Positions 12,721 to 61,952 of a stretch of DNA of 64,000 nucleotides are shown one piece after another (position 1 is the stretch's first letter; each line of letters opens with the position of its first letter). Both the position numbers and the translations under genes were made by a program. This DNA comes from a virus (taxonomy: Duplodnaviria > Caudoviricetes). The notes below the pieces were generated by a model. The model made no database searches. It worked only from the letters and a program-made list of their open reading frames with translations, and was not told where the DNA came from. The stretch is taken from positions 1,076 to 65,075 of the IMG/VR virus record IMGVR_UViG_3300007541_000020, one strand, 5' to 3'.

Positions 12721-12724
12721 TTAC

Positions 12725-39430: not shown

Positions 39431-42400
39431 ATGCCTTTATATATCGAATCAAAAGCTTCAGACACAGTACCACGTTTATTTAGGAGAAAAATAAATGGAA
39501 CATATAACCCTTCTGATGAAGACAAAGAGAAATTACAATCGACATCATTTTTTAGATCATTAGATTTGATATGCGAAGGACCTATAGAGGGGTTTTGTGA
39601 TGCAACAGGAGCATTAATAACAGATGGAAGGATTTTACAAGGGGTCTATTTAAATAATGTTCCAGTGCAACTTACACTAAGCCCAAAAGCAACACAAAGA
39701 TTTAATTTTAGAAATATATCGGTTGCATATAAATTTGGAACAGAAGATCAAGAGCCTTTATACATAGACTCTGAAACTAATGAAAATTTTGGTTGGTTGG
39801 AAGACTGTTCTTACTCTTCAATGACTACATCATTAGGAACTGTATTAGATAATCAATTACAATTAGAAGCGGGTGCTACTGCAGGAGGTGTACCCAAGGA
39901 ATTGAATTCTCAAGCCAATTACTCGGTTATAGATGCTGATGTAGATTGGTTGGCAATCACATTAAATATAGAGCAATGTTATAGCATAAACGAAGAAGGT
40001 GACCATAAACCCAATCAAGGACAAGTTATGATTTTCGGGGATTTTACGGGCGCATATCATAGGAGTCATGGAGATACAAAGATAACGGCAGTTCCAAACG
40101 ATGGGGGGAACGATTACAGTATAGTTATCAACTACGATGGTATGGCAATGGCTCCATATCAAGAAGAAGTTTTTGTTAAATTAAGAGACGTAAAAGATTC
40201 AAAAAGAAATAAAAACAGAAGGGTTTATATAAAGAATGCAACCGAAGAAACTTATAATTTTAAAAGAAAATGGTCTGTTTCAGTGCCTACTGTAACGGAA
40301 ATAGTTGATAAAAATTTATCTTATCCTTTTTCTGCATATATAGCCGTACTTTGTAATGCAGAAAGTTTTGCTTCGGTGCCAAATAGATCATTTCATTTAA
40401 AACTAAAAAAAGTAAAGGTTCCCAGTAATTATGTAGAAAAAATGGAAGGCCCTAATGGTCCGACAAATCAAAGAGCATATGATAGCAAATTTGGGGCAAA
40501 AGGATCAACTTATTCATCCGAAGAAAGACATGAGGGATTTTGGGATGGCACATTCAAGGACGAATTAGAATGGACAGATAATCCAGCATGGATACTATAT
40601 GATATATTAACTAATGATATATATGGTTTAGGAGAGTATATTAAAAATTTTAATATTGACAAATGGGAGCTTTATAAAATAGCTAAATTTTGTGACGAGT
40701 TAGTAGAGACATCCAAACCTCATTCTACATCTAGCACTGGATTTAAAAAAGAAAGAAGGTTTTCATGCAATATAGTTTTAAGCAACGCTGCTGATGCATT
40801 TAATACCATAAGTGAATTAGCATCTGTATTTAGGGGTGTAGCTTATTTCAATAATCAATCTGTATTTTTTAGCGTTAATAGACTAAAAGAATCAATTCAT
40901 AAATTCACAAACGATTCTGTAATAGAAGGGATATTTAGATATAGCGGAGCCCCAAAGCACTCAAAATTTACAGCTATAAGAGTGGCTTATAAAGATAAGG
41001 ATAATAATTATTTAACTAAATACGAATACATTGAAGATCCAGAGGGCATCATTAAATTTGGTTTAGTTATGAAGGAAACGACCGCGATAGGTTGTACGTC
41101 AAGAGATCAGGCCTTAAGGCTCGGGAGATGGATTTTATTGACATCAAACTTAGAAGAAGGGCAGGTAAGTTTTACTTCAGACTCTCAAGCAGAATACTTA
41201 AATCCTGGAGATGTTTTTACAGTAAGAGATGAGATGAAGAATATCCATAGATTTGCTGGGAGAATAAAAGAAATAAAGTCTGATAGCATTAACATAAACG
41301 AAAATTATATTTTATTGGATCAGAATCTTGACTTGGAAAATTTTAATATCAAAGACATCAGTTTCTTGATACCAAGCAAAGATGTAGAAGACGAAAATGT
41401 AGAACAGTATAAAGCATTTATTCATAGAGATGGATATAATTTAGGAAATCAGGATGGAGGATTCAGGAAAGCAGAGAAACTTTTTATACCATTGAATTCA
41501 GAAAATTCAGAAAATCAAGATATACATAGTTATCTAGTTAACACAGAAAATGGAACTAAATTTATAACTAACGAAGAAGAGAGTGCAATACTTAAAAAAA
41601 CCCACAATGATTCCTTAATAGGGGGAGGGGCTGGACACAAAACATTGAACGATTATTTATTGGATTCAGAAGTATTAGCTCAATTAACTAATGGAACAGC
41701 TAGGTCAAAAATAACACAAAAAATCAAAGAAGGAACTTTATATTTTATTTCGGCAGAGGCGAAGGACGGTTCAGATTTAGAAATAATTGAACAAGATTTT
41801 CAATTGATAAGAAAATCAGATAATGGAGATGGCACATATTCAATTGTAGGACAAGATTTCAATAGAGATAAATTCGATAAAACTGAAAATTTATCTACAA
41901 TATATAAACATACTACATTTAGTTACGATACCGATGACACTGACCCTGGGATAGGGGAAGATGATGAAATACCAGAAAGAATATTGCCTCCAGCTCCACA
42001 AGTAGAAAATCCAACATTTCCTAGAGAAAATACTGTAGATTTATTAATTACTACCACTGGCTTTGTAAACACAGAGGGAGAAACTAAGTCTAGGGTAAAT
42101 TACTATTTTCATAATACTCAAGAAAATAATTTATATTACCAGGATGAGTACAGCAAGAACCACAGATATGAAATAAGATGTTCTGAAATTGATGAAGATA
42201 AATACACAACACTTTTTCAATCTCAATTTTCAGTAGGAGGAGATCAGGTAAATATATTACAAGAAGGGCAATATATATTATCTGGAGTAGGGAAATGTGG
42301 AGAATATAGAGTGCTATATGACCATTCAATAGGAGAGCCTAAAGTATTAACTCCAAGCGGTAAAGCCTTGGTTGGTGGAACTATAGATAGACACATTTCT

Positions 42401-45400
42401 GTGCCTAATTATAACGAGACTGATTTTAGTCCGTTTGCCAATATTGTAAGAGCTAGAAATAGAAATGAATGGGGAGAAATAAAATTAGAGGGATGCGAAT
42501 TATTTGACGAAATTTATAAAGATCAAAAGACGGGTTATGTGCTTTCTGGACAGTTCGAATTGCCAAATCCAGATGCATATTATGAATTAAGATGGCTCGA
42601 AGCTAACGATAAAGGAACTTCTCCAGAGAAAATAATGTTCTTCAAGGGATCTAGAGATGATATACCCCCAGGGCCAGTTTCAAATTTCAAAATAAGAATT
42701 AACAACTTATTTCCTAATATGCTTAATTATTCCTGGCAGCATCAAGGACAAAAAGATCCTGATTTAGCTGGATTTAGGATTTACACTGGACATATAAATG
42801 GAGAAAACCCAGACTATGAGTTTGATGATTTGGATGAAGATGGAGTCCCTAATCCTGGCTCAGAGTTTGCTGAAATAATGGGCAAAAATGCTTCTTATTT
42901 TACATACGAAGCAAATACCAGTGATGGCACAATAAAAGACAACGATGGAAATACCTTAAGCTTTAATGATACTGGAGCATTTCACATAAGAGCTTTTGAT
43001 ATGTCAAATAATTTAAGTGTTCCAGCAAACAGCAATATTTTAACATTATTTCAATTTGCAGAGGCTCCTGATATATTTTTATCTGGAGAAATAAGAGAAG
43101 AAGGTGTTGGAACTGACACTTACGGATACTATCCTATTTTACATGTTTTTTATTCTGGTTCATTTCACGAGCAAGATGCATTTAGCAAATATTCTTTATC
43201 TATTTTAGATGAGACCAATGGCTTTGGTGTTTCAACAGAATATGATATATTTAGAAATGGAGTCAAGATTGCAGACAAAAATGTTTATTCTGCTGAAAAT
43301 TCTGGACACTATGAAGTAAGAAATGTCTTACCAAACTCAACTTATTTAGGTAGAATTTCAGCTGTAACAACTGATGGTAGGCTTTCTCCAGAAGGTTCGG
43401 ATAGAACAACGATAGGAAAAGATGAGTTCGCACCTGGTAAACTAAGAAACTTTAGAGTAGACAAACAATTCTCAAATTTTAGATTTTCATGGGATGAGCC
43501 AATCGAAAATGATGTAAAAAATGTATTGTTATTTACAGGGTTAGGTGGCGAAAATTTTGGCATAGAAAAAGAAGATGAAGATGATATAAAAAAATTAGAA
43601 GTGAGGCCAAAAAACCCTCCATTTGCTTCTGTATTACCAGATGATTCTCCAGTTTTTAGGGTAGACAAATTTAAAAATGCAGGAGACCCTTTTAATGAAA
43701 GATTTAAATTTCATGGATTGGCGGTAGATACATCTAATAATACTGGGATGTATGAAGATTTTACCTATGCATACGTTGATCTTAGTGGGCCTGAATTACA
43801 CACAAGCGGTCAACTAACCGATGACGGTAGATCTTTAATACATGTGTTTTATTCTGGAGAAGGGCAGTCCGATGAGTCTTTTAGGTATTATTTAACTCAA
43901 TATCAAGACACTCAAGATTTGGCAATACAGTCTTTTCAGGGATTGGATAAAGCAAATTACATAAATGAGGCAGACAGGAAGACTGTATCAGAAATACACG
44001 GAAAAGGATCTGGCCATTTTTCTTTTGAAGCAAGAGGCAATCGATTTTATGAGATTAGATCTAAAATGGTATTTGATGCATTTGAGTCAAGATGGGCAGA
44101 TGATATTGTTTTAACCGAAACAAAAGATGGTTTTATAAAAGCCGTCCCTGATCAAGTGCCTCCAGGCAAACCAACATGGATATCAGCAACAAAAAATGGA
44201 AATAATATATTTCTATCTTGGGAAAATCCTCCAGATCATGATTTATTAGCTATAAATTTATATACTGGAAGCAAAGAATCTACGCTTGAATCAGATGGAA
44301 CATTTATACACCAGAGAGCTTTGCAAACATCACAAGTTATTCCTCTAAGAGATTTTGCTGCAAACAAAAACAAGCAATTTTATTTTTACTTGCAGGCTGT
44401 AGATACATCATTGAATACTGGAGAATTTAGCGATTCAAGAGGGTTGAATGTTGGAATAACAAGACAGCTAGACAGAAAAGAAATTTATATAAATAGCGGA
44501 ATAATGCTTGATGAAGATGGAGATGGTTCTGCAAAACCTTTTATATCATACAAAATATTAGATGAGCCTGTAAATTTTCAACATGCACTTTATGATATAC
44601 AGCTATCTACAAATGATACATACAATCCTCTTGTTTCCACCCAAACCATAGAAGTAGAGCATATTTCCGATTTAAATTTAAATAGTGGAAGCGGTACATT
44701 TTTGAATTTAAACGCAAATACAGAATATTACTTAAGGGCAAGAATAAGAGAGTTTGATGGGAAGAGTAGTTTATATACAGAGGCATGGGACAATCCAATC
44801 TTAACCCCCAAAGATGACATACCTCCAAAAAACCCTGAGAATTTCTATATAATATCTGGACCAAAACAAGCAATACTTGAGTGGGATTGGAGTGCGGGAA
44901 TATCTTCAGATATAGCATCCGTATTAGTTTATAAAACAGGAATACCAACAGGAAGGGTTGCGACAAATTCTCATAAGGTAAATAATTGCTGGTCCGCTGA
45001 GCATATAAGTGGTTATTTTGAAGACAATCCCGATGATTATTCATATAAATTAAATGCTTCAACTTCATTTGTGGATAATGATATAGAGACAGGAATTGCG
45101 TTCCCTAATACAAACAGCCCAAAACAATCTATATATTATCACTATTTATTAAAAACAGTTGATAGATCAAATAATACTGGCGAACATTTTGTGTCAGGGA
45201 AATCGAGGGACCCTCATGAATATTACTGGGTAAATAAAGCAAAAACAAAAAAAGATGATTTTGTAAATAAAAGATATGGAACAACACCACACTATCATGG
45301 TTACATAACTGGCGGGGCAGTAAGTGCTGATTATATAACAAATATTTATGCAGGAAGGATATTAACAGATAAATTAACTACAACTGATTTAATATTAAGT

Positions 45401-47848
45401 CACCCCAGCGGTAGATTGTTGAGCGATAATGTGTACGCGATGGGCTCAAATGATCACAAATATGATTACATGAAAGGTGCGGGTGTATACATTGATCATA
45501 AAATGTTTAGAATAGGAGATCCAAATCCAGGAGGGTTTGGATTATTCTGGACTGGTGAAAAATTATCAAACGGAAATTTTAAAGTTCCCACATTTAATGA
45601 AGATCCTGATGGATTTCATGCGATTGATATAAATCCAAATACATTAGAAATAAGGGGCAACTTAACAGCTGGAACGATACAAATAGGGGCCAGCGAACAA
45701 AATGCCTTAAGTGTCGATGATCAAGGCAATTTAACAATAGGAAATCAAAGCAAAAATATTCAGGGATTCTTCTCTAATAAAGCTGGTGTAAGTGGAATTT
45801 TAGGAGAAATTCCTAGTTATATATCAAGCCCTGATCCAGATGCTGTATACGTCCAATTAGATAAAAATGATATAAGCACACAAGAATCTATAGAACTTCA
45901 ATCTCTAGCGAACGGAGGAGGGTTTCTTGAAACAAACTGGATTAGAGGAAGATTTAGAGGGTGGGAAGTAAGAGCTATAGAAAAAATAGAAACAGCAGGT
46001 AATGATGCAAAAAAATGGACTGTAAAACTTGGGGTGCCATTTTCGGCATATGTCGGTTTTAACTTTTTTGATATACAAGGAAACACATATGGACTAAGTG
46101 GCGTTGTAGCAACTGGATCAAAAGATATTTACACGCAAAGCGATGCTCCTACCGATTCCTTAATAGGATACCCAAAAGTAAGAGATTGGTGGAGAGTACA
46201 TCAAGCTAAATTCAAAGTTACTAATGATGGAGTATTGTTTGCTGCAGATGCTAGAATACTAGGAACGGCCAAAGCAGATTCTTTAGAAGTAAATAAAACA
46301 ATCGTTTTAGGGGACACTTATAATACATACACTAGTATTATTCAAAGTTATGGATTTGAAGAAGGAAATGCATGTGACGGAGTTAATCCATCTGGCTGGA
46401 AAATTGTTGGCGATGGGCATGCCATATTTAAAAGTATTGATATAAGGTCTGGAGTAATCAGCGGGACTGTAGGTTTATCTATTGGGCAACAATGTGATGA
46501 TACATATGCATTTAGAGCTAATCAATTTGGAGAAATTGCCGTAGGAGATTCCAATGTTTTACATAAGAATAATTTCTACGTATCAAGAGAAGGAAATATA
46601 TCAGCAAATAATGCCGTACTAAAAGGAGACCTTAGTGTTTCTGGATCTATTGACGTTGGAGATGGAATACTACTGGGATCGAAGGTTACAAGAGATCAAT
46701 ATGGAAATGTTACAAGTGTAACAAAAGACCTAAATGATGGAATTTTAATTACACAAAATGATATAAGATCATTGGCTTACACGGATGATTTTAATGGAGC
46801 AGCTGGTTTTAAAATAGACAATAAAGGAAGAGGGATATTTCATAATATAGCAGTTACTGGAGGAGCTCTCAGTGGAGTATCCTTAATTATTGGGAAGGGA
46901 ACGGTAACCAGTCCTTATTTTAAAGCATTTTCAGATGGTGAAATAAGCGTCGGAAGTCACAATGGCGCAGGCACTGCTCCCAGTAAAAACGATCCTTTTT
47001 ATGTTAGCAAAAAGGGAGAGTTATGGGCAAATGATGCTCGCATAAAAGGAACCATTAGTGGGAGTGCTGGATTAATAGGTTCCTTGTATATAGGAGAAAC
47101 GTTTGTGTCAACATTTAACGAAGACTCGGCATCTCCTGTTCGAACAAGCAATGATTTACAAAAAGTTGATTCTAAGAAACCGTTGGCGGCTGGTAATTAC
47201 AGAACTGGATTATTTATTGGAAGAAATGGAGAGTTCTCCATAACAAATGAACAAGGAAAATTGTTTGGATGGAGAGGTAGCAATAAATATTTAACTGTAA
47301 CTGGATTGGCTTCTAGTAGTAGTGAAAATGCAAGTTTTTATACAGTGGAGGGTGCAGATAAAACAAAAGCAAATTTTGAAAAAGGAGTTGGATTTTACTT
47401 GCAAGGTGGAGGAGGAGGCAGTTATATATCCAATTTTACGACCGATACGAGTAGCGCAAAAAATATAGCAAGTAAAGTAATAACGCATATATGCGGGGAA
47501 ATACATGGCCCTATAGTTGGTACAAATTATACAGTACTGGCAAAATCTAAAATTGGGTATACCGTAAAAGAAGTTTACCTGGAATGCGATGGATCTAACA
47601 ATACATGCACGGTTCAAATAAATAGAAGTCATCATAGTGTAAGCCCAGCCCAAAAAATAGGAGATGGAACTTTTCTTGGTAGCTCTGACGGAACATCAGA
47701 ATTGGTGACATCAAATAATAAAATTGTAGTAAATAGCGAAAGTAATAGAAAGAATTTTGGATATATTGTTTTAAAAGTTATTCAGACTAATGGAGCAAAT
47801 ATAATTAAATTTAGAATAGAATTAATTAGAGATAATAGCTATGCTTAA
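39431..47848 (+). CDS. Tail tip / host specificity protein J (2805 aa) with FN3 repeats
   Basis: DLICEGPIEG, WTDNPAWILYDILTN and GCTSRDQALRLGRW are gpJ motifs; four FN3 units start D(D/E/Q)xxPG/PK; C-terminal beta-repeat fibre region. Confidence 0.9.
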   Translation: MPLYIESKASDTVPRLFRRKINGTYNPSDEDKEKLQSTSFFRSLDLICEGPIEGFCDATGALITDGRILQGVYLNNVPVQLTLSPKATQRFNFRNISVAYKFGTEDQEPLYIDSETNENFGWLEDCSYSSMTTSLGTVLDNQLQLEAGATAGGVPKELNSQANYSVIDADVDWLAITLNIEQCYSINEEGDHKPNQGQVMIFGDFTGAYHRSHGDTKITAVPNDGGNDYSIVINYDGMAMAPYQEEVFVKLRDVKDSKRNKNRRVYIKNATEETYNFKRKWSVSVPTVTEIVDKNLSYPFSAYIAVLCNAESFASVPNRSFHLKLKKVKVPSNYVEKMEGPNGPTNQRAYDSKFGAKGSTYSSEERHEGFWDGTFKDELEWTDNPAWILYDILTNDIYGLGEYIKNFNIDKWELYKIAKFCDELVETSKPHSTSSTGFKKERRFSCNIVLSNAADAFNTISELASVFRGVAYFNNQSVFFSVNRLKESIHKFTNDSVIEGIFRYSGAPKHSKFTAIRVAYKDKDNNYLTKYEYIEDPEGIIKFGLVMKETTAIGCTSRDQALRLGRWILLTSNLEEGQVSFTSDSQAEYLNPGDVFTVRDEMKNIHRFAGRIKEIKSDSININENYILLDQNLDLENFNIKDISFLIPSKDVEDENVEQYKAFIHRDGYNLGNQDGGFRKAEKLFIPLNSENSENQDIHSYLVNTENGTKFITNEEESAILKKTHNDSLIGGGAGHKTLNDYLLDSEVLAQLTNGTARSKITQKIKEGTLYFISAEAKDGSDLEIIEQDFQLIRKSDNGDGTYSIVGQDFNRDKFDKTENLSTIYKHTTFSYDTDDTDPGIGEDDEIPERILPPAPQVENPTFPRENTVDLLITTTGFVNTEGETKSRVNYYFHNTQENNLYYQDEYSKNHRYEIRCSEIDEDKYTTLFQSQFSVGGDQVNILQEGQYILSGVGKCGEYRVLYDHSIGEPKVLTPSGKALVGGTIDRHISVPNYNETDFSPFANIVRARNRNEWGEIKLEGCELFDEIYKDQKTGYVLSGQFELPNPDAYYELRWLEANDKGTSPEKIMFFKGSRDDIPPGPVSNFKIRINNLFPNMLNYSWQHQGQKDPDLAGFRIYTGHINGENPDYEFDDLDEDGVPNPGSEFAEIMGKNASYFTYEANTSDGTIKDNDGNTLSFNDTGAFHIRAFDMSNNLSVPANSNILTLFQFAEAPDIFLSGEIREEGVGTDTYGYYPILHVFYSGSFHEQDAFSKYSLSILDETNGFGVSTEYDIFRNGVKIADKNVYSAENSGHYEVRNVLPNSTYLGRISAVTTDGRLSPEGSDRTTIGKDEFAPGKLRNFRVDKQFSNFRFSWDEPIENDVKNVLLFTGLGGENFGIEKEDEDDIKKLEVRPKNPPFASVLPDDSPVFRVDKFKNAGDPFNERFKFHGLAVDTSNNTGMYEDFTYAYVDLSGPELHTSGQLTDDGRSLIHVFYSGEGQSDESFRYYLTQYQDTQDLAIQSFQGLDKANYINEADRKTVSEIHGKGSGHFSFEARGNRFYEIRSKMVFDAFESRWADDIVLTETKDGFIKAVPDQVPPGKPTWISATKNGNNIFLSWENPPDHDLLAINLYTGSKESTLESDGTFIHQRALQTSQVIPLRDFAANKNKQFYFYLQAVDTSLNTGEFSDSRGLNVGITRQLDRKEIYINSGIMLDEDGDGSAKPFISYKILDEPVNFQHALYDIQLSTNDTYNPLVSTQTIEVEHISDLNLNSGSGTFLNLNANTEYYLRARIREFDGKSSLYTEAWDNPILTPKDDIPPKNPENFYIISGPKQAILEWDWSAGISSDIASVLVYKTGIPTGRVATNSHKVNNCWSAEHISGYFEDNPDDYSYKLNASTSFVDNDIETGIAFPNTNSPKQSIYYHYLLKTVDRSNNTGEHFVSGKSRDPHEYYWVNKAKTKKDDFVNKRYGTTPHYHGYITGGAVSADYITNIYAGRILTDKLTTTDLILSHPSGRLLSDNVYAMGSNDHKYDYMKGAGVYIDHKMFRIGDPNPGGFGLFWTGEKLSNGNFKVPTFNEDPDGFHAIDINPNTLEIRGNLTAGTIQIGASEQNALSVDDQGNLTIGNQSKNIQGFFSNKAGVSGILGEIPSYISSPDPDAVYVQLDKNDISTQESIELQSLANGGGFLETNWIRGRFRGWEVRAIEKIETAGNDAKKWTVKLGVPFSAYVGFNFFDIQGNTYGLSGVVATGSKDIYTQSDAPTDSLIGYPKVRDWWRVHQAKFKVTNDGVLFAADARILGTAKADSLEVNKTIVLGDTYNTYTSIIQSYGFEEGNACDGVNPSGWKIVGDGHAIFKSIDIRSGVISGTVGLSIGQQCDDTYAFRANQFGEIAVGDSNVLHKNNFYVSREGNISANNAVLKGDLSVSGSIDVGDGILLGSKVTRDQYGNVTSVTKDLNDGILITQNDIRSLAYTDDFNGAAGFKIDNKGRGIFHNIAVTGGALSGVSLIIGKGTVTSPYFKAFSDGEISVGSHNGAGTAPSKNDPFYVSKKGELWANDARIKGTISGSAGLIGSLYIGETFVSTFNEDSASPVRTSNDLQKVDSKKPLAAGNYRTGLFIGRNGEFSITNEQGKLFGWRGSNKYLTVTGLASSSSENASFYTVEGADKTKANFEKGVGFYLQGGGGGSYISNFTTDTSSAKNIASKVITHICGEIHGPIVGTNYTVLAKSKIGYTVKEVYLECDGSNNTCTVQINRSHHSVSPAQKIGDGTFLGSSDGTSELVTSNNKIVVNSESNRKNFGYIVLKVIQTNGANIIKFRIELIRDNSYA

Positions 47849-47860
47849 TAATATATTATT

Positions 47861-48016
47861 ATGAATATTAAAGAATTAGACGACCTTAATATAAAAGCTA
47901 TACTTTATGATTTAATTTCAGAAAAAGAATTAATACAAGAGAATATAGACAGATTAAAAGAAGAATTGCTTAGAAGAGAGGTAGAAAGAGAAGATAACAA
48001 AAAAAAGGAGCAGTAA
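47861..48016 (+). CDS. Small coiled-coil protein (51 aa), not in the ORF track; possible fibre chaperone
   Basis: MNIKELDDLNIKAILYDLISEKELIQENIDRLKEELLRREVEREDNKKKEQ; fills the gap, with its TAA abutting the next ATG. Confidence 0.7.
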   Translation: MNIKELDDLNIKAILYDLISEKELIQENIDRLKEELLRREVEREDNKKKEQ

Positions 48017-51000: not shown

Positions 51001-51319
51001 AGATATATACAAAGCAAAATTTGAAAAAACTGCAATGCATCCATGGGTGTTGGCTCTATATGGACACGGAGGAGATAGTACTGGATGGGCAGAGGTAGAA
51101 GGCGGTAGTAAAAAACATGCTTTGACTATATATGAAAGCAACGGATTTGTACTAAGGGGAGAAAAAATACAAGTTATGCTGCATGAATGTCCACCTTTAT
51201 TTTGTAGGCAACTAGAAGCGAATACTGGAATGGCATTAAGTAATGATGCATCTAATACATCTTGGGGTAGATCAATGCATCCAGTAAATAGATACAGAAT
51301 ATATTTAGTAGCTAAATAA
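48017..51319 (+). CDS. Large hypothetical protein (1100 aa), possible receptor-binding/virion protein
   Basis: RBS AAGGAG; Trp/Tyr/Gly/Thr-rich; directly after the tail tip genes; no family recognised. Confidence 0.6.
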   Translation: MPFDDIYCKIYGNTDYKKSGEYQVSPYVFARFGKTKTEDSHSDFTFLGDRRWAIAPRYWVQGMDMQYPFFIFDIEHPKFTDGEPVAPMRTTSVVYGWPGVKGTYRDGTYGARETVDGMNIGSVSTMVQNAYRSKYSGITNNEILFECQNRESCHNFTNMPYIKNVENPFVGVHKEQPLEITADGNYYRGFYIVLERERFHYDEARIALWPYNQFNDSTGLYPPCRSMSVAGEYFPDGRTSFYSTKLFEFNVGATYALRYLVGIADKATCNKTTGIGCGTTPEGEKVDLQTFACNAQRHGYTENDKNNPDYGAQCYFKRNTLKEHIRLVAEDPVGKFGTTSRAQALADGFSTKIPLNGLNSDDVRQRLYGSYDSGNDFVDPWSKAENIWNNADAYDFRDLLTIWTWTRKAPGTQHSPKSISNITPAMEAEMFWFYWRTFGGHQFWYELNDSAPFLWDFAFCNGLGINKGPGPGPIRYEYAPGHSNSPGFAEIDVKDAVIHPDYSVRKQIETGNVWIKNITIKKGNTVLEAKNDIKGEYQEISSSEIWNGKGTTHITATSSGTGNKTITFSNLYKSKSNIISRYIATDFKIKFGSETTEYSIASVSSSSNTITLSTARGGKITNSSFTLLIPRGARGSGYTWGQYKLTNFDKDNFTNTNSTWLSIQYRSPKFGNNLHRDLFPNVEISNYSNWPSASGDVQNLNFYSLSNNYRTFEASKFGQTGKPVRHPYFANELGEALYLDNDFHHIAFWDRAYLRGSMPRYGFASCKIPGKKNVTWNGEKWVEYWERVFSPRSSSTWTETSVDATLNKAGYTNLAWTTSTGDGNYNEQALDGSPVNVYTPRFYMDGIDKASGSIWPNYRNILADIEDPEGVFPFDYDFPDRTDWTSKYTTAFSKVYGATGVPSIGKILDGPWCSFCSFKTDTNIEIWGTAEGQYFETNDPKTPYLYVWGSGVYEVTGAHARFALQSISSITGTYYTAESVVLNRNVRSTVYGIWQDIYKAKFEKTAMHPWVLALYGHGGDSTGWAEVEGGSKKHALTIYESNGFVLRGEKIQVMLHECPPLFCRQLEANTGMALSNDASNTSWGRSMHPVNRYRIYLVAK

Positions 51320-51328
51320 AAGGTAATT

Positions 51329-51958
51329 TCATGTTTTGTAAATGTACCAGATGCGTTTGCCTGATGTTAATATTTCAAAATTAAAATCCTGAGATATTCT
51401 TTTAAGTGCGTTTGGTAAACCAAATATTGTTCGATCATCACCAAAAATAACTCCGCCTTTGTTTAAGATAGAATAATAATTTTTAATATCTTGATAGGCG
51501 TCCTCCTCTAAGTGAGAGCCGTCAATATATATTAGATCAGGATTGATTTTCTTATACTTTAAAATTTCAAAACCGATTACACTTGTATTAGGTATTGGTT
51601 GTATTAAATCTTGTGCATTATTATGTACCACATTGCTTAAAAACTGATAATATACTTGAGGGAAGCCATGTAAACAATTAAGGTCACGCTCGGGCGTGTG
51701 AGAATGATATGTCCAAAACTCTTCAGCTCCCAGCCACGTATCAATACAATAAATCTTATTACAATTTAAATTATTGTTTTTGCAAATATTTGCCATGTTG
51801 ATTGCTGATGCGCCTAACCAAGTTCCGACCTCAACAATTAAGTTGGGATTTATTTCTAATAAAATTTTCTTAAAAAATGGATCGTTTGAGCCCCAGCCAG
51901 AAAGTTTTTCAGGCAATGGCTTAAAATTTTTGTATATATCTTGGTTGATTTGATTCAT
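51329..51958 (-). CDS. Class I SAM-dependent methyltransferase (Methyltransf_24-like)
   Basis: VEVGTWLGAS, CIDTW, LIYIDGSH and GGVIFGDD motifs. Confidence 0.85.
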   Translation of the reverse strand: MNQINQDIYKNFKPLPEKLSGWGSNDPFFKKILLEINPNLIVEVGTWLGASAINMANICKNNNLNCNKIYCIDTWLGAEEFWTYHSHTPERDLNCLHGFPQVYYQFLSNVVHNNAQDLIQPIPNTSVIGFEILKYKKINPDLIYIDGSHLEEDAYQDIKNYYSILNKGGVIFGDDRTIFGLPNALKRISQDFNFEILTSGKRIWYIYKT

Positions 51959-52950
51959 GTTAATTTATTAATAGCTTGTTTTATAGTGACCCACATATCC
52001 ATGTATTGATATGTAGCTAGACGACCTAAGAAAATTACATTATTTTCTGATCGGATAGATTTTTTATATTTTTTATAAATTTCTTGACCCTCTCCAAAAT
52101 TTTTGGGGTATATTGGTTCGTTTGTTTCATCGTGTTCTTCTGGGTAATCCCGCGTTAAAATTGTATGATCTTCTTGCTGGTTTAAAAAAACACTGTTATC
52201 AACTGTCCTATTGTATTTTATAGTTTTATCTTCGCATTCATTGATTTGAGCTCCAGAATCAAAAGAAAATAAATCAGTTCTTTTAGTTTTAAAATGTTTA
52301 AATTTAAGAGATCTATAGGGTAATTTTCCAAATTTCAAATCAAAGAATTCATCTGGTTTGCCAGTATATATCATTTTATCACATTTTAATTTTTTGTACT
52401 CATTCCTTGATACTCCCAAATTAACCTTAATACCATTTAACATATTATTCATCATGTCTGTATAACCTTTATGAGGTATACCTTGATACTTATCGAGTGA
52501 ATACCTGTCATCAAATGATTCCCTGCGGGTTGGTACTCTTGAGGAAATAGATTTGGGCAATTTATCCCAAGCGATGCCCCAATGTCTCTCAGAATAATTA
52601 ATAAATATAGAATCATAAATTTCTTTATCTGTGAGTTTTTTTCCTATTTGCTGTTCTGTTAACTTGCTGTATGGAATGTTAATCATTCCATACTTTGTAT
52701 TAGCCCTAACTCTCAAACTATGATTGTTAAATTTTGTATATCTATTTAAAAAATTCCATACTTGCTCATCGTTTGTATGAAAACAATGTAGCCCATATTT
52801 GTGAACTTTAATGCCTTCCATGTCTTCATCATAACAATTTCCGCCAATATGATTGCGAATATCAAATATTTCAACATTATGCCCTTGGCTTTTTAAAATA
52901 TTTGCTGATGTTATGCCTGATAGTCCGCAGCCTATTATATTAATTTTCAT
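51955..52950 (-). CDS. glf: UDP-galactopyranose mutase
   Basis: IIGCGLSG FAD motif, RNHIGGNCYD, HKYGLHCFHT, YQGIP..GYT, LPYRSL and FLGRLATYQYMDM. Confidence 0.93.
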   Translation of the reverse strand: MKINIIGCGLSGITSANILKSQGHNVEIFDIRNHIGGNCYDEDMEGIKVHKYGLHCFHTNDEQVWNFLNRYTKFNNHSLRVRANTKYGMINIPYSKLTEQQIGKKLTDKEIYDSIFINYSERHWGIAWDKLPKSISSRVPTRRESFDDRYSLDKYQGIPHKGYTDMMNNMLNGIKVNLGVSRNEYKKLKCDKMIYTGKPDEFFDLKFGKLPYRSLKFKHFKTKRTDLFSFDSGAQINECEDKTIKYNRTVDNSVFLNQQEDHTILTRDYPEEHDETNEPIYPKNFGEGQEIYKKYKKSIRSENNVIFLGRLATYQYMDMWVTIKQAINKLT

Positions 52951-53726
52951 TTAATTTTTTTGATATCATGAAGTAATGTTTCATATTTAGAATAAGTTCT
53001 TATCTTAGAATTTGAAAATTTACTATACCAAAGATTAAAAGTGTTATGTTGTACTTCCCCTCCTTTGATTGCATATATGTAATTAAATCCACCAGTAAAA
53101 CTTGATAGTATACTACCACCACCTTGAACCGATATTTTACCTATGGATTTAGATCCTAAGATTAATTGCAGTTCGTTAAATGAATAATTTTCTTGTAATT
53201 CATTTATATCAATTACATTAGGAAAATTTTTAGAAATCAAATCGTAATCTCCTAAATCGAACAAAATACTATTGTCTTTGGGGATTTTATCTCCCCTGGG
53301 TCTATTATAGATTAAAGAAAAATGGGGGCTTAATATTTTAAAAATCTCAGAAAGAGTATTCAAGTCAAGAAAATTGACTGGCTCTGAACCCCATTCAGTA
53401 TTGTACTTGTTGTTGACTATTAATACATCTTTTTCAAAAGAATTTTTTAATTTTTTATTTTTAAAGTGCGATTTATAGTCTGGGAAAATTTCATTTTTAA
53501 GAGCTGGAACATGTATATCTCCGTAGAAATTATTCGTTTTCTCTGTCCTTTTTGTGTACTTTTCTATAACACAATCTTCTGGCAAAAAGTAATAAAAGCA
53601 TCGCATGCCTTGATTTGTTATTACTGTAACTTTATCATTGTTTAAGTAGTGCTTATATACAAGAGGGACAATCAAAATAAGTTCATACCCAAATTCTGGC
53701 GCATAAGTATCTACAATTAATTCCAT
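52947..53726 (-). CDS. Putative glycosyltransferase-like protein
   Basis: EFGYEL N-terminal motif and C-terminal ISVQGG; GT-B-like layout; inside the glycan cassette. Confidence 0.45.
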   Translation of the reverse strand: MELIVDTYAPEFGYELILIVPLVYKHYLNNDKVTVITNQGMRCFYYFLPEDCVIEKYTKRTEKTNNFYGDIHVPALKNEIFPDYKSHFKNKKLKNSFEKDVLIVNNKYNTEWGSEPVNFLDLNTLSEIFKILSPHFSLIYNRPRGDKIPKDNSILFDLGDYDLISKNFPNVIDINELQENYSFNELQLILGSKSIGKISVQGGGSILSSFTGGFNYIYAIKGGEVQHNTFNLWYSKFSNSKIRTYSKYETLLHDIKKIK

Positions 53727-53744
53727 TTGAATTGAGTGTTATTT

Positions 53745-55367
53745 TTATGTATTATATAATATTTTTTCGAGTGTACAACTGAAGCTTGAGGCACTGTGAA
53801 CATTTCTTTGATACCAATCGTAACAGTTTTTAGACATAATATTCCACTCGTTTTTGTTTATAGATTTTATTTTTTCTAATAATTCATCTTTGGAGTTTAT
53901 GCTGATATAATGTTTATTTTCAATCAAGGGTTCAATATAAGAATTAACATTAACTTCTTTTGTTATAATAGGAACTGTTCCGAATGCCATTAATTCTACT
54001 TCCCTGTGACACTTACTTCCATAGCCACGTAGACATAGGCCATATTTTGAATTACGCAATTTCATGAGATACTCTTCCTGGGTAAATTTATGTTCATGAC
54101 CTGCCGTACAATGGTATTCCGTAAGCACCGAGCTCCAGTCAGTTCCAGTGTTTCTGTATATTGATTGCACGTTGTTTTCGTAATTTCCTATAAATATACT
54201 TTCTATTTCCCTCTCTTCGTAAGATAAGATTTCTTTTTCTCTCAATATTCTTTCTAACACTTTGGGCCTTCTGGGCCAAAAAATCCATGGAATCACATTT
54301 AGGTTATTTCTTTTTAGCATTTCCCCTTCTTTGTTGACGTCTCCATTTCCTAATAATATTAAACTTGAACTCAATAATTCATCATCAAACCATTCTTTTG
54401 TTGGCCTATCGTATAGTAATATATGATCCCCTATCCAGCAGTGACCGCTACTAGACAGTTCAATATCAATGGATTCGTTATTGTCTTTGTATAGAAGGGC
54501 CAATTCCCTAAAACTATCATTGGTATGATTCCATATACCTTGCTGTGGTTGACTTGGAATTTTTATATTCCATTTTTTGTTAACAATTCTATCGATTATT
54601 AACAACTCTTTATAGCGCTTTAACTTAATAAGTAAACTAAGGAAAATTTCGTTTATTCGAAGGAATCTAGGGTCTTCAAAGTGTGTGTGTAGAAATATTA
54701 AAGGTTTATTGTTTATCGTAATTTCTTTTTTATTGATACCTATCGAGCTCGCTGTCTTACGTGGGTTTTCAGATAATATTATTCTCCAAGGCATAAAGTT
54801 TATTTCTTCACCAAATTCTGAATATCTATATTTTTTTGCCAAGTCTTCGATGGATGCCTGGTCATGATATCTTGAGGTTTTTGTGAATTCTATCCAGTCA
54901 TTTGCAATGTTTTTATTTTTTGTCCACAAACATCCGCCATTGTAATAACCAACTTCATCTGTATTTATTTTTTTAATATAATGTGGAGATAGTCCAAGGT
55001 CCTTTGTTTTGTCTACTGATGTGATGGGATTTAGGAATAATATATCGCTATCTAAAAACATTGTGTCGTCTTCATTTTCTAAGGCGTATTTTATTACATT
55101 AGCTTTTTGCATCTGAAATTCATCCCATATTTTTTCTTGGACCATTGTAGCTCTATTTTTACCACTATATTTATCCAGTGTGGTTTTTAAAAATAACTGC
55201 AATTGAATTCGGGGAATAAAATTATTTATTAAATCGTGTGTTTCGGAGTCTATCAGTCCATATACTTTTGAATTATTATGATGTATGGATAAACTCAATA
55301 ACATTCCAATCAATTCATTACTGGAATTATATGTAGATATAAAACAAAAACTATTAGGCTCTGACAT
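53745..55367 (-). CDS. Two-domain glycosyltransferase: GT-A (DxD) plus exostosin/GT47-like C-terminus
   Basis: N-terminal MFLDSD, YYNGG and DQASIE; C-terminal EYLMKLRNSKYGLCLRGYGSKCHREVELMAFGTVPI. Confidence 0.75.
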   Translation of the reverse strand: MSEPNSFCFISTYNSSNELIGMLLSLSIHHNNSKVYGLIDSETHDLINNFIPRIQLQLFLKTTLDKYSGKNRATMVQEKIWDEFQMQKANVIKYALENEDDTMFLDSDILFLNPITSVDKTKDLGLSPHYIKKINTDEVGYYNGGCLWTKNKNIANDWIEFTKTSRYHDQASIEDLAKKYRYSEFGEEINFMPWRIILSENPRKTASSIGINKKEITINNKPLIFLHTHFEDPRFLRINEIFLSLLIKLKRYKELLIIDRIVNKKWNIKIPSQPQQGIWNHTNDSFRELALLYKDNNESIDIELSSSGHCWIGDHILLYDRPTKEWFDDELLSSSLILLGNGDVNKEGEMLKRNNLNVIPWIFWPRRPKVLERILREKEILSYEEREIESIFIGNYENNVQSIYRNTGTDWSSVLTEYHCTAGHEHKFTQEEYLMKLRNSKYGLCLRGYGSKCHREVELMAFGTVPIITKEVNVNSYIEPLIENKHYISINSKDELLEKIKSINKNEWNIMSKNCYDWYQRNVHSASSFSCTLEKILYNT

Positions 55368-55382
55368 AATCAATTAATATGG

Positions 55383-56342
55383 TTATAATAATATGTTTAT
55401 TAAAGTGGCCGTGTATTCAAGTATATTATTATAAGTTAATACATTTTTTACAAAATCTTTATTATTTTCTATTATTTGCAAAGAAAATTCTTCATTAATT
55501 TCTAATTTATCATGAATGATTCTTAATTCATCCTCTTTATTGTATTTTATATAATTAATTCCATCTTTTAATAAATAACTATAAAATTCTTCATATGGGC
55601 TATTTTTTTTTATAATTACAGAATTTACATTCAACAGTAATTTCATTCTGTCGCTTAATGTATTGCCATCATTATAAATGATATATTTATATTTAAAATG
55701 CTCATTGAAGAAATGAAAATTCTCCCCAGCTAGATTTTTAGATTTTAATTTTTCAATTAAACCTTTTTTCAGATCTTTGTATTCGTGAACCGATCCTCCG
55801 TAAATATGCCCATCTATAATATCTTCATTTTCCAAACCATATATAAAATAATTTATTTTAGAAAGATGAGCTATACAATTTGTATAAAATTTATTTATTT
55901 TTTTATTAAAAGGATATTGATCATGCAAGCCCTTCATATAATTCGTTTCTTCATCATAATTTTTAAATTTATCAATATACCAATATTCATCTAAATTTAT
56001 ATCACTTAATGCAAATCTAAAATCGGGAAAGAGAAAGTGTTTTTCATTGATTTTTCTGCAAAAATTGAAGCATCCTTGTTTGGGTGAATCATTTAAATTT
56101 ATATTAATATTTCCATCTTTCACTTCATGTTTTAGTAAAACATTGCTCACTAGAGCTATATATTGTTTTTTCCTAACTGGATGAATCCACCCAAGACCTT
56201 CTATTATGTTGAAAATGCTATTATCTTTTACTTGTATTACTATTGATTCATTTAATTTTTTATCACATTTTTTATATTTATCCTTAAAGCTGGCTTGATG
56301 TTCAATGATTTCATGAAAAAAATTTTTATTATTATTCGTCAT
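55383..56342 (-). CDS. Glycosyltransferase family 90 / CAP10-like
   Basis: FLFPDF and HFKYKYIIYNDGNTLSDRMKLLLNVNSVIIKKNSPYEEFYSYLL match the GT90 C-terminal signature. Confidence 0.75.
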   Translation of the reverse strand: MTNNNKNFFHEIIEHQASFKDKYKKCDKKLNESIVIQVKDNSIFNIIEGLGWIHPVRKKQYIALVSNVLLKHEVKDGNININLNDSPKQGCFNFCRKINEKHFLFPDFRFALSDINLDEYWYIDKFKNYDEETNYMKGLHDQYPFNKKINKFYTNCIAHLSKINYFIYGLENEDIIDGHIYGGSVHEYKDLKKGLIEKLKSKNLAGENFHFFNEHFKYKYIIYNDGNTLSDRMKLLLNVNSVIIKKNSPYEEFYSYLLKDGINYIKYNKEDELRIIHDKLEINEEFSLQIIENNKDFVKNVLTYNNILEYTATLINILL

Positions 56343-56382
56343 GTTTTTTAAAAGTTATATTTAAGTTTTTATTGCTTAATAT

Positions 56383-57069
56383 TCAGTGGGAGTATTTGTT
56401 TTGTATTTCCCTGTCTTCTTTCTGGGCTAAATGTATTTTTTCTTTGGAAATAGAATCAGGTCTGTCAAGAAAACAACCCACTATTTCAGGTATTTTTTTA
56501 AACTTAAAATTACTTTTTGATAATTTTAACCACATATCATAATCTCCGCTTGATACATATTTTTCGCTAAAATATCCAACTTTTTCAATTGCAGATTTTT
56601 TTACCAGAGGGAAAGGGCCGCATATACACCTAGTGAGTAATACTTCGTGACTGTAGTTTGGCCAAATTAATATATTTGATGGTGATTCAAAGCCTTGATT
56701 TTTTGATGTAAAACAGGGGCCGTAGAATAAATCTATATCTGAATATTTGCGAGCATAGTCTTCGTAAGTTTTAATAGCGGAAGGGAACAAAGAATCATCA
56801 GTGTTCCAGTTTAAGACATATTTTCCAGTTGAGTTTTTAATTGCTAAATTCCATGCTTCGTATATTGTAAGATTTTTATTTTGGGATATTATTTTTGTTT
56901 TAATGTTTTCTTTAAATTTAAAATTACTTATTATTTCTAATGATTTATCTTGCGAGTTGGCGTCAACAAAAACAATCTCAAAGCATTCGGAAAACTGAGA
57001 GTTGATCATATCTAAATAAAGATCTAGATATTTTTCAGAATTATATACTGAACTGATTATTGATATCAT
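56383..57069 (-). CDS. Glycosyltransferase family 2
   Basis: ISIISSVYNSEKYL, VDANSQD, WNTDD and GDYDMWLKL. Confidence 0.9.
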   Translation of the reverse strand: MISIISSVYNSEKYLDLYLDMINSQFSECFEIVFVDANSQDKSLEIISNFKFKENIKTKIISQNKNLTIYEAWNLAIKNSTGKYVLNWNTDDSLFPSAIKTYEDYARKYSDIDLFYGPCFTSKNQGFESPSNILIWPNYSHEVLLTRCICGPFPLVKKSAIEKVGYFSEKYVSSGDYDMWLKLSKSNFKFKKIPEIVGCFLDRPDSISKEKIHLAQKEDREIQNKYSH

Positions 57070-57923
57070 AATTTATTTTCTATCTTTTTCCAAAAATTGG
57101 ATTTAGCTAAAGAACATTCTTTTGAGAAATTCTTTAATCCATTTTTTTTGTATTCTAGGTAAGATCCTATTCTTGACATATCTCCATGAAAATCATTTAT
57201 TCCGCACATGATTGATTCACCTATCATCCTACAAAAAGGTTCGTTAACCAAGGGGTGGTGGAAAACCCCAATGGAACTTTGGTATATTTCTGCTATTTCT
57301 TTTTGGTCTACCTTTCCGTGAAATCTTATATTATCAATGTTTTTAAAATTTTGTTCTATTCCGTTTTCAGACCAACCAAAAATGTCAAATTTTCTATCAC
57401 TGTTATTCTTGGCATATTCAATTAAATTATTAAAGCCTTTTAATGGATGAAGGAAACCGCAATATATTATATCGTATATTTTATCTTTGTTTTTGTCAAT
57501 ATTAAAAATAAATGAATCTATAGGGTCTGGTAAAAATTCTACATTTTCAAATATATTTCCATAAAATTCAGTAAAAAAAGACAGATGGAATTCAGAAAGA
57601 AAGAAGTTTATTTTGGATGAACGAAAAAGCTCTTCTCTTACTGATTCAGTAAGATAACTGCATGAGTCATGCTCGAGCCTTACATGAAAATCATGATTAC
57701 TTATATAATCTATTTTTTCTGGAGATAATTGATTAATTGCCTCGAGGTTAGAACTTACCACTACATCAAAAGACTGTAAAAAATCAACTGGCGAGCTGTC
57801 GAAATTATGCAAAATAATATCGTACCCCATCTTTTCCCCCTCTTTAATTATTTCATCATTACTAACTTGAGCTCCGCCAGAATTATGCTTTAGCCCAAAA
57901 TCAGAAATGAATAAAACTTTCAC
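57066..57923 (-). CDS. Glycosyltransferase, GT-B/GT4-like
   Basis: GGAQ, GFLHPLKGF and EPFCRMIGESIMCG; GTG start. Confidence 0.8.
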   Translation of the reverse strand: MKVLFISDFGLKHNSGGAQVSNDEIIKEGEKMGYDIILHNFDSSPVDFLQSFDVVVSSNLEAINQLSPEKIDYISNHDFHVRLEHDSCSYLTESVREELFRSSKINFFLSEFHLSFFTEFYGNIFENVEFLPDPIDSFIFNIDKNKDKIYDIIYCGFLHPLKGFNNLIEYAKNNSDRKFDIFGWSENGIEQNFKNIDNIRFHGKVDQKEIAEIYQSSIGVFHHPLVNEPFCRMIGESIMCGINDFHGDMSRIGSYLEYKKNGLKNFSKECSLAKSNFWKKIENKL

Positions 57924-58064
57924 TCAATATGATTGAGCTTAATTAGGAAAATTCAATTTTTTTTTGAAAAAATTATTTCTTATATTATATTATATATATA
58001 TATTATGGAAACATAATAATTTTTATTAGTACTAATTATTATTTTTCTATAAATAAAAAAAAAC

Positions 58065-58093
58065 TTGATTTTATTATTTTTTTTTGTTAAGAT
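58065..58093 (+). promoter_or_regulatory. Sigma70-like promoter TTGATT-N17-TAAGAT (near-leaderless)
   Basis: The -10 box ends 7 nt before the in-frame ATG at 58101. Confidence 0.5.
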
Positions 58094-58100
58094 ATGGGCT

Positions 58101-58412
58101 ATGATAAGAAAATCAGATGAAAAAAAGGATATATTTTTAGTATCAAGCGCGAATTGGGAAATTGTTTTGGATTCAGAAAATGAAAGTTTCGCTGTAAGCG
58201 AGGCTCTTTCAAGGGCTTATGAAAAATACAAGGAAAAGCTTTCTCTATCCACTACAATTTCAGTCTTTAATGTATCAAAATCTTATAAGAAAATGATTGA
58301 TATTGATAATATATCATTTTTTCATACTCCTGCATCTCTAGCAGATGCAGGTTTTCATGACTTAGCTTCAAAATACTCAGAATTTTTTAAATCAATTAAA
58401 AATGAATCTTAA
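58101..58412 (+). CDS. Hypothetical protein
   Basis: ORF track starts at TTG 58065, which coincides with a -35 box; ATG at 58101 preferred. Confidence 0.65.
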   Translation: MIRKSDEKKDIFLVSSANWEIVLDSENESFAVSEALSRAYEKYKEKLSLSTTISVFNVSKSYKKMIDIDNISFFHTPASLADAGFHDLASKYSEFFKSIKNES

Positions 58413-59468: not shown

Positions 59469-59469
59469 A

Positions 59470-60451: not shown

Positions 60452-60457
60452 TTTTTT

Positions 60458-60485: not shown

Positions 60486-60490
60486 AATAT

Positions 60491-61561: not shown

Positions 61562-61562
61562 A

Positions 61563-61949: not shown

Positions 61950-61952
61950 AAA

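Follow-up and report, generated by a model that had tools for sequence, protein, structure and literature searches.

We analyzed a window of 64,000 nucleotides from a linear virus record of 65,075 bp (IMGVR_UViG_3300007541_000020; CheckV completeness 55%, that is, 45% of the genome is unseen). The window is low-GC marine DNA (~33% GC overall) that encodes a tailed-phage structural module and, beside the tail genes, a cassette of seven sugar genes. It had been predicted from the sequence alone that Ser-Gly and Thr-Gly dipeptides ([ST]G), concentrated in probably exposed segments of the tail proteins, are sequons of a proteoglycan-like virion O-glycosylation system whose enzymes are encoded by the cassette. 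Our analysis separates the two halves of that proposal. The [ST]G cluster in the J-like central tail protein is real, and we read it as a by-product of tandem FN3-like repeats, while the cassette is a separate and genuine set of glycan genes whose likely product contains galactofuranose (Galf). For this explanation as a whole we estimate a probability of about 0.5.

The J-like central tail tip/fibre protein (2,805 aa; 39,431–47,848, plus strand) resembles lambda J in its N-terminal ~625 residues, where residues 454–616 match Pfam Phage-tail_3 (E 1.8e-16) and residues 9–624 are ~31% identical to the host specificity protein J of Burkholderia phages (tblastn); its distal parts gave 0 matches across 50,697 GenBank phage records. 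The [ST]G counts of the original prediction were all reproduced. With expectations taken from composition-preserving shuffles (5,000 for the J segments), residues 876–2625 (42,056–47,305; position 42,056 is residue 876, inside the gene rather than at its start) hold 43 sites against 24.8 ± 4.4 expected (z 4.2), residues 1–875 hold 4 (8.1 expected) and residues 2626–2805 hold 0 (3.9 expected). There are 8 sites in the 95 residues 20–114 of the tail tube protein and 7 in the first 62 residues of a fibre-like open reading frame (ORF), counted from a TTG at 63,977. A protein of 4,216 aa has 30 and is depleted (46.7 expected, z −2.6), the tape measure protein shows no enrichment (42 vs 38.2 expected), and the 1,100-aa protein encoded after J has 19 (15.4 expected).

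Tested as whole proteins, just 2 of the 38 ORFs reached a nominal p<0.05, namely J (47 [ST]G vs 36.7, p 0.029) and the fibre-like protein (14 vs 8.0, z 2.4, p 0.023), and neither excess was significant after correction for 38 tests. As the segments of the original prediction had been picked post hoc, we used a scan statistic over all contiguous runs of 125-aa blocks in all 38 ORFs, with the maxima of 300 shuffled proteomes as the null (mean 2.87, 95th percentile 3.7). Residues 1001–2000 of J contain 27 [ST]G against 10.9 expected, a z of 4.85 that was reached by 0 of the 300 null maxima; the N-termini of the tube (8 vs 2.2, z 3.85) and of the fibre-like protein (7 vs 1.9, z 3.67) lie about at the 95th-percentile threshold. 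The predicted enrichment over shuffled controls is therefore present in J, at the level of segments and not of whole proteins, and the local clustering in J is a genuine sequence feature.

The core of this cluster coincides with four tandem repeat units (J residues 1073–2000; 42,647–45,430, plus strand), each made of two FN3-like beta-sandwich domains. The units were spotted by eye and confirmed by aligning the four; a BLASTP self-comparison of J, with default and with sensitive settings, reported no repeats. T-G and S-G columns are invariant across the four units, and 18 of the 25 [ST]G sites in the units fall into five homologous column groups ([IFYK]-T-G, N-T-G, [LTN]-S-G, Y-S-G/I-T-G and x-S-G-[HTR]), the remaining 7 being singletons. 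Counted as independent positions, the [ST]G sites of the units number ~12, against ~10.9 expected. Y1118-T1119-G1120, S1218-G1219 and F1240-Y1241-S1242 are invariant also in an alignment with six relatives of 35–56% identity.

An AlphaFold model of J residues 1070–1580, built from a 5-sequence alignment, is all-beta (mean pLDDT 62.6, pTM 0.43), and its top Foldseek matches in the PDB are strings of FN3 domains (6tpw, E 8e-11; 1fnf, E 6e-10; probability 1.00), with low TM-scores (0.2–0.3) that we attribute to domain arrangement and to the mediocre model. Nothing beyond a weak match to fn3 (E 0.0024) came out of Pfam searches with segments of J, and residues 1571–1669 are matched by many multi-FN3 proteins. 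The predicted fold is thus a tandem array of FN3-like beta-sandwiches. Among the 11 [ST]G sites covered by the model, the Ser or Thr is the last residue of a strand and the Gly opens a turn in 4, and another 2 have the Gly at the start of the next strand; of the rest, 2 lie mid-strand and 3 in loops. A small hydroxyl residue at the end of a strand with Gly at the turn accounts for the pattern of hydrophobic or aromatic residue followed by S/T-G that had been noticed originally and that we confirm, with a hydrophobic residue before 22 of the 43 distal sites against a background of 31%. Asp-Gly is enriched in distal J about as much as the two dipeptides with a hydroxyl group (DG 1.43-fold, SG 1.54-fold, TG 1.46-fold), which is more in keeping with a preference for turns than with an acceptor role of the hydroxyl group. 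The other [ST]G sites of distal J lie in Gly-rich fibre-type repeats of the form F-x-V-x-x-x-G-...-I-S-G (45,431–47,305, plus strand; translation read by eye), in contexts such as VISGT, SVSGS, ALSGV and TISGS.

We propose that distal J would consist of about eight FN3-like domains in four tandem units, followed by the Gly-rich fibre repeats. In folds of both kinds a small polar residue would close a strand and a Gly would begin the turn, and duplication of the unit would have copied the same five S/T-G positions fourfold. We hold it to be highly probable that the clustering is such a structural by-product, and that the supposed sequons are conserved strand-end and turn positions of the repeats.

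Similar clusters occur in other phages. The control set was 21 proteins of lambda, T4 and T5, distal J having no annotated relatives in GenBank phages, and two of the 21 contained a segment with z ≥3, the other 19 staying below 3. One is T5 pb4, a central tail fibre/tip protein with strings of FN3-like domains like those of J, which has 19 [ST]G against 10.3 expected (z 3.2); the array in the window differs in being longer, with ~8 domains, and in having no detectable sequence match in GenBank phages. The other is T5 DNA polymerase, where residues 376–625 contain 8 against 1.7 (z 4.9). Clusters of similar strength can therefore arise in proteins without any link to glycosylation.

The cassette itself runs on the minus strand from 57,923 to 51,329, with GT4, GT2, GT90-like, a 542-aa glycosyltransferase (GT), a 259-aa protein, Glf and a methyltransferase in order of transcription, and most of the families that had been assigned to it held. 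Its first gene encodes a GT4-type (GT-B) enzyme of 285 aa (57,066–57,923; Pfam Glycos_transf_1, E 1.8e-9), followed by a GT2 enzyme of 228 aa (56,383–57,069; Glycos_transf_2, E 6.2e-17) and a GT90-like enzyme of 319 aa (55,383–56,342), whose residues 87–316 score above the curated Pfam cut-off for Glyco_transf_90 (53.7 bits vs 24) and whose family was found at only 2 loci among 185,579 species genomes. A protein identical to the GT90-like enzyme is encoded on a contig of 102,967 bp. UDP-galactopyranose mutase (Glf) is present as a short form of 331 aa (51,955–52,950), with a GLF domain (E 1.3e-49, 169 bits) and an N-terminal FAD/NAD(P)-binding Rossmann motif (NAD_binding_8, E 1.5e-17, 64 bits; N-terminus MKINIIGCGLSG). 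It has 867 homologues at E ≤ 0.001, several of them named UDP-galactopyranose mutase by JGI. The last gene encodes an S-adenosylmethionine-dependent O-methyltransferase of the sugar-modifying type (209 aa; 51,329–51,958; Methyltransf_24, E 1.7e-16; RMNT_CmcI, E 1.2e-8; TylF weak).

The exostosin-like assignment was the weak one. The 542-aa protein (53,745–55,373) is a two-domain GT with an N-terminal GT-A-like part (weak Nucleotid_trans match, DSD at residue 108) and a C-terminal GT-B part that resembles exostosins and A075L of the virus PBCV-1; this part matches RXYLT1_C and reaches 27.5 bits for Exostosin_GT47 (PF03016), under the cut-off of 33.4. Many of its homologues have a precomputed PF03016 match, and by its sequence the protein is a divergent relative of GT47/exostosin. 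The 259-aa protein (52,947–53,726) had no Pfam or PDB match, and its fold prediction gave no confident model (mean pLDDT 40.3). Its nearest clusters in the Atlas are unnamed and mostly viral, the cluster at rank 18 carrying Glyco_transf_9 on 30% of its members. A homologue of 48% identity abuts Glf in loci L112 and L113, and the GT90-like gene adjoins Glf in loci L007 and L008 and on L003, a 3.1-kb contig of a cyanobacterial metagenome-assembled genome (MAG), where the two lie at 782–2955 and the GT90-like protein is 38% identical to that of the window. From this conserved adjacency we infer that the GT90-like and 259-aa proteins use UDP-Galf or Galf-containing acceptors, the latter protein being a candidate Galf-handling transferase.

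The Kyte-Doolittle maximum over 19 residues is at most 1.22 in all seven cassette proteins, so no membrane segment is predicted in any of them, and no family of the Wzx, Wzy or Gtr type appears in their Pfam results. A promoter and terminator scan of the cassette was uninformative as to promoters (43 sites vs 46.4 expected). The gene content describes a genuine seven-gene operon with no predicted membrane-anchored protein. The cassette is also plastic: in a sister phage contig of 88.5% nucleotide identity (L001), the GT90-like gene is swapped for a 237-aa protein and an FkbM methyltransferase (L001 25,951–27,353, minus strand; window 55,383–56,342). The region from 51,300 to 62,000, which comprises the cassette and the adjacent DNA-metabolism genes, has 28–29% GC against 33–37% in the tail genes, compatible with a different origin of the block.

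For the 542-aa protein, 1,085 homologues at E ≤ 0.001 were obtained from 7,999 best-matching candidates scored, and the best 120 of these are 56–87% identical to it, many coming from marine surveys. Loci were classed as giant-viral from Pfam matches on the ORFs inside them, and L023, L027, L005 and L009 were given no class. The eight loci with this gene in the viral_contigs set comprise the sister phage, two loci with giant-virus hallmark families, three on contigs named GVMAG, and L023 and L027; homologues in giant-virus loci are 63–73% identical. L024 encodes MutS, DUF5767 and a Ser/Thr kinase (Pkinase), L025 encodes a Pox_A22 resolvase and DUF5767, and on the contig of L025 the GT47-like homologue of L011 is surrounded by Glyco_transf_15, a GT-D-like protein and a DXD-motif GT fused to a methyltransferase. 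L007 and L008 are the loci in which Glf adjoins a GT90-like gene; L008, also one of the loci with a GT47-like homologue, has two genes for Rpb2 and one each for Rpb5 and MutS. The FkbM methyltransferase of the sister phage is 74% identical to one beside the GT47-like gene in L024. The 205-kb viral contig L112 carries the pair of Glf and 259-aa protein within an island (1,679–12,883) that also has genes for a collagen-repeat protein, a GT4 enzyme, DUF5824, an epimerase, UDP-glucose dehydrogenase, APS kinase and a sulfotransferase. With its class I (Glu/Gln-type) aminoacyl-tRNA synthetase as well, L112 is probably a giant virus, and the content of the island suggests a glycan that is sulfated and contains Galf.

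In a maximum-likelihood tree of 21 sequences of the 542-aa family, the two phages are sister to the clade of L021, L024 and L025 (support 95/91), and other sequences from GVMAG and large contigs are spread across the tree. A search of the PDB with the single sequence gave no match; with a profile of the family, it returned only chains of PBCV-1 A075L (8q8i, 8avq and 8asa; E 2.5e-6 over ~100 residues). Judged by similarity, the best-matching viral homologues of the cassette lie in giant-virus contigs. An assembly chimera between a phage and a giant virus was rejected, as the same junction of tail genes and cassette is found in the independent sister contig.

The available text of PMC11571054 and PMC9614988 describes A075L as the beta-xylosyltransferase of the PBCV-1 capsid-protein glycan. 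The system in the window resembles that of PBCV-1 (A075L of GT114, glycan of Vp54) in having soluble virus-encoded GTs and sugar methyltransferases, independent of the host's secretory glycosylation route, and A075L is the sole solved relative of the 542-aa family. Homologues of the GT47-like protein, and of the FkbM methyltransferase of the sister phage, are 63–74% identical and sit in loci with giant-virus hallmark genes. The system of the window differs in that the similarity to A075L is restricted to one domain, that the genes belong to a tailed phage whose tail tip is lambda-J-like, and that no characterized counterpart from giant viruses matches Glf, the GT90-like gene or the GT-A-like domain at the N-terminus; "galactofuranose" and "GT90" have 0 occurrences each in PMC9614988.

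According to these assignments, Glf would convert the UDP-galactopyranose of the host to UDP-Galf, the soluble GTs would build, in the cytoplasm, a short hetero-oligosaccharide that contains Galf and is some four to six sugars long, and the methyltransferase would cap it. It is likely that the cassette makes a Galf-containing glycan. The methylated, galactofuranose-containing product of the original prediction is a reasonable inference, since a single operon combines four to five GTs with Glf and an O-methyltransferase of the sugar type. A075L, the sole solved relative of the exostosin-like domain, makes a capsid glycan, and several cassette genes have their best-matching viral homologues in giant viruses, so the acceptor would most likely be something the virus makes itself and not a host-specific lipid carrier. 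A virion protein is our tentative choice, at somewhat less than even odds, based on the relationship to giant viruses and A075L, the precedent of mycobacteriophages, the tail genes that adjoin the cassette and the fact that no membrane component is predicted in it. A virion-directed role, as originally proposed, is thus plausible by the A075L precedent, while the [ST]G sites are not supported as its attachment points.

In mycobacteriophages, virion glycans are reported on the subunits of capsid and tail tube, at their C-terminal ends (Freeman 2023, as cited in the available part of PMC12619734). The likeness lies in GT genes carried by a tailed-phage genome, GTs that in mycobacteriophages modify virion proteins according to that source; the window differs in its low-GC marine DNA and in that neither its putative capsid (17,070–18,149) nor its tube has an S/T-rich C-terminal tail. 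A search of the ORFs for S/T-rich tracts found at least 13 Ser or Thr in 30 residues in only three, the 4,216-aa protein, the ORF at 16,405–17,037 and the 1,100-aa protein, none of them clearly mucin-like. The richest tract of the window (15 of 30 residues) is at residue 1782 of the 4,216-aa protein. The ORF at 16,405–17,037, of 210 aa and directly before the putative major capsid gene, has a C-terminal tract of 13 in 30, which by composition would make a more conventional-looking candidate O-glycan acceptor than the [ST]G sites. We also entertain, as a doubtful further step, that the phage took a virion-glycosylation module from the giant-virus gene pool of eukaryotic plankton and may use it, in the bacterial cytoplasm, to cover proteins of its own tail or head with a Galf glycan that is methylated; this module would comprise the A075L-like two-domain GT, the GT90-like GT, the Glf-linked transferase and, in the sister phage, the FkbM methyltransferase.

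Three other readings of the same genes have to be weighed. In the one originally proposed, the GT90-like enzyme would act as a protein O-glycosyltransferase that primes the Ser/Thr-Gly sequons in exposed parts of the tail, the exostosin-like enzyme would elongate a proteoglycan-like chain, and the virion would be coated with it. It draws on the local excess in J, tube and fibre, on the adjoining tail genes, and on a match of the GT90 profile to the protein O-glucosyltransferases Rumi, POGLUT1 and POGLUT2 (E ~4e-11). However, that match is confined to the donor-binding C-terminal ~110 residues (profile ~198–312) and so does not indicate the acceptor, and A075L, the solved relative behind the subthreshold exostosin match, is in the accessible text of PMC9614988 a xylosyltransferase acting on a glycan and not a heparan polymerase. 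The sites occupy homologous columns of the repeats, DG is equally enriched, and control proteins have comparable clusters. The sister phage, whose J is 93.7% identical, keeps the same 43 distal sites without a GT90-like gene; the 46 of 47 [ST]G conserved there, against 107 of 118 other X-G dipeptides, count in favor of the sequon. In L031, syntenic with the window through the homologue of the 1,100-aa gene, J is 52% identical and enriched (27 vs 12.8, z 4.0), with no GT domain in the 4 ORFs of the remaining 5.5 kb downstream. The J of L034, ~35% identical, is not enriched (47 vs 51), and the 5 ORFs over 10 kb downstream of it likewise gave no match to a GT domain. Glycosaminoglycan attachment uses Ser-Gly in an acidic context, often SGxG; the surroundings of the 43 distal sites have 10.4% Asp or Glu against a background of 13.3%, 3 sites are SGxG, and 4 of the 25 SG sites have at least three acidic residues within ±5. 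POGLUT enzymes act on folded EGF repeats with C-x-S-x-[PA]-C, a motif with 0 occurrences in all 38 ORFs of the window. Proteoglycan machinery comprises a priming GT14, linkage-region GT7, GT31 and GT43 enzymes and an EXT-type GT47+GT64 polymerase; GT14, GT7, GT31, GT43 and GT64 are all absent from the Pfam results of the seven cassette proteins. The likeness to animal proteoglycans comes down to the dipeptide itself and a distant GT47-type domain, nothing more, and the window sites mostly follow hydrophobic strand residues. For the most part, what the original prediction had named as speaking against its sequon is what we found, and we regard this reading as very improbable.

The explanation that we favor, of structural [ST]G sites and a separate glycan cassette, has several points against it. 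The model of J is mediocre, with the first FN3 domain of the unit below 50 in pLDDT. Conserved S/T-G positions could in principle be kept because they are modified, and the J cluster does beat independently shuffled sequences. The enriched N-termini of tube and fibre are not covered by the FN3 repeats, and their assignment to Gly-rich turn or fibre repeats, made by eye alone, may be mistaken. The sister phage is a weak test, its J being too close for sites to have eroded after loss of the GT90-like gene, and L031 and L034 are contig fragments whose genomes may carry a cassette elsewhere. As for the giant-virus link, the direction of transfer is deduced from numbers, the root of the tree not being fixed, and the homologues are not characterized, so that the link says nothing direct about their function. 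Finally, the cassette is divergently adjacent to genes of nucleotide and DNA metabolism (58,402–60,451, plus strand), namely dUTPase (58,402–58,926; Pfam dUTPase, E 7.7e-18), a T4 gp1-type dNMP kinase (58,923–59,468; DNMK, E 5.9e-11), one more gene, and SSB (60,050–60,451; SSB, E 2.9e-19), and the Glf of one phage has been assigned to a pathway that glycosylates DNA (PMC13326640, available part).

This last point leads to DNA hypermodification, in which the cassette would attach an oligosaccharide with Galf, perhaps methylated, to 5-hydroxy- or 5-hydroxymethyl-cytosine or -uracil of the phage DNA and so protect the genome from host nucleases. Phage GT clusters, also near structural genes, add mono- to trisaccharides to 5-hydroxymethylcytosine (10.1101/2023.12.21.572611, in the part available), and the cassette proteins are all predicted to be soluble; both points count for this reading. 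The Rhizobium phage RL38J1 (Pootjesviridae), with glycosylated 5-hydroxycytosine DNA, is the closest likeness: in the accessible part of PMC13326640 its DNA has mono- to tri-hexosylated cytidines with a base-proximal galactose, and its proposed pathway has Glf, several GTs and nucleotide kinases, as the window has a dNMP kinase beside the cassette. However, its defining ThyA-type 5-hydroxy-dCMP synthase was not found in the 65-kb record, its tail is contractile, and sugar O-methyltransferase and GT90- or GT47-like enzymes are not among the RL38J1 components that this part of the paper lists. Neither a thymidylate-synthase homologue (PF00303) nor a TET/JBP enzyme (PF12851) was found in the record, a weak argument at 55% completeness. 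Moreover, the methyltransferase belongs to the CmcI/TylF type that modifies sugars, rather than to the cytosine methyltransferases of DNA, the transferase domains, up to six, are more than the mono- to trisaccharides reported for DNA would call for, and the homologues in giant-virus loci sit amid other glycan genes (L011 and L112). On balance we consider DNA an unlikely acceptor.

Remodelling of the host surface would have the soluble GTs, during infection or lysogeny, extend or alter a lipid-linked glycan of the host (O-antigen, capsule, S-layer or cell wall), blocking superinfection or the loss of progeny on debris. GT2, GT4, Glf and O-methyltransferases are typical O-antigen and capsule genes, which counts for this reading, as does the GT90-like/Glf pair on the cyanobacterial MAG contig. 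Such remodelling is a classical role of phage GTs, serotype conversion being cited in PMC12619734 (available part), and GT sets of cyanophages have been read as cell-surface modifiers (PMC12801897, likewise). Against it, Gtr-, Wzx- or Wzy-type proteins would need a membrane segment, and none is predicted in the seven proteins, although soluble GTs acting on the lipid-linked units of the host would still be compatible with this. Homologues of the GT47-like, GT90-like and 259-aa proteins occur in viruses of eukaryotes, whose hosts lack bacterial lipid carriers, the GT90-like family is found at so few loci among species genomes, and no integrase was noticed in the window, in which not every ORF is annotated. 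We therefore think this role, too, improbable.

To our knowledge, glycosylation of virions by viral enzymes is firmly known from giant viruses, and mycobacteriophages are essentially the only phages for which this holds. Clusters of phage GT genes, glycosylated virions and the glycosylation of giant viruses have all been described before; the new element is a marine siphophage whose seven-gene cassette includes Glf and is made largely of giant-virus-type genes, and our literature search found no description of such a phage cassette, which is no proof of absence. A low-GC marine phage with this cassette would widen the picture of virus-encoded virion glycosylation, and the best viral matches in giant-virus genomes point to an exchange of genes between bacterial viruses and those of eukaryotes. 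If true, a module derived from giant viruses would mean that autonomous virion glycosylation machinery is shared across realms, and the glycan would be the first that contains Galf on a phage particle. The cassette is also a small set of soluble enzymes suited to reconstitution in E. coli, which could show the roles of galactofuranose-using GT90-like and A075L-like enzymes. For phage tail proteins in general, tandem FN3 and fibre repeats readily yield an apparent enrichment of a dipeptide "sequon", and repeats should be corrected for before modification is inferred.

The remaining genes of the structural module are consistent with a tailed phage. The tail tube protein (592 aa; 22,984–24,762, plus strand) was assigned from Atlas features, with Phage_tube_2 in 29 of its 30 matches (score 0.95) and shorter tube models aligning within residues 1–567, and had neither a Pfam nor a PHROG match; the Gly-rich N-terminal stretch with its 8 [ST]G lies at 23,041–23,325. 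It is followed by the tape measure protein (3,304 aa; 24,853–34,767, plus strand; Pfam PhageMin_Tail, E 3.2e-26), six small tail genes, J and the 1,100-aa protein (48,017–51,319, plus strand), which has no Pfam match, has a homologue that also follows J in L031, and is probably a tail fibre or baseplate component. The fibre-like structural protein (62,517–63,998, minus strand) runs off the end of the window and has a weak PHROG match to "virion structural protein" (E 2e-4); the [ST]G of its first ~62–69 residues sit within a V-x-G/S-G repeat. Of the 10 head, tube and fibre proteins compared with PHROGs, 9 had no match.

Tail length follows a rule of ~1.5 Å per tape measure residue, by which the 3,304 residues would correspond to an unusually long tail of about 0.5 µm. 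The giant ORF of at least 4,216 aa (18–12,668, plus strand) lies upstream of the head genes and runs off the 5′ end. Three minus-strand ORFs (333, 253 and 98 aa; 19,228–21,304) lie between the head-side and tail-side plus-strand genes and have no Pfam match above cut-off, the 98-aa ORF weakly resembling ABC-3C CTD11 (E 0.0056). The C-terminal part of the tube protein (residues 408–541) is 28% identical to L031 5,750–6,127, the homologue of a 275-aa gene that follows the tape measure gene in the window (34,764–35,591), and this similarity suggests that the 275-aa gene encodes a tube-fold paralogue, possibly the distal tail protein.

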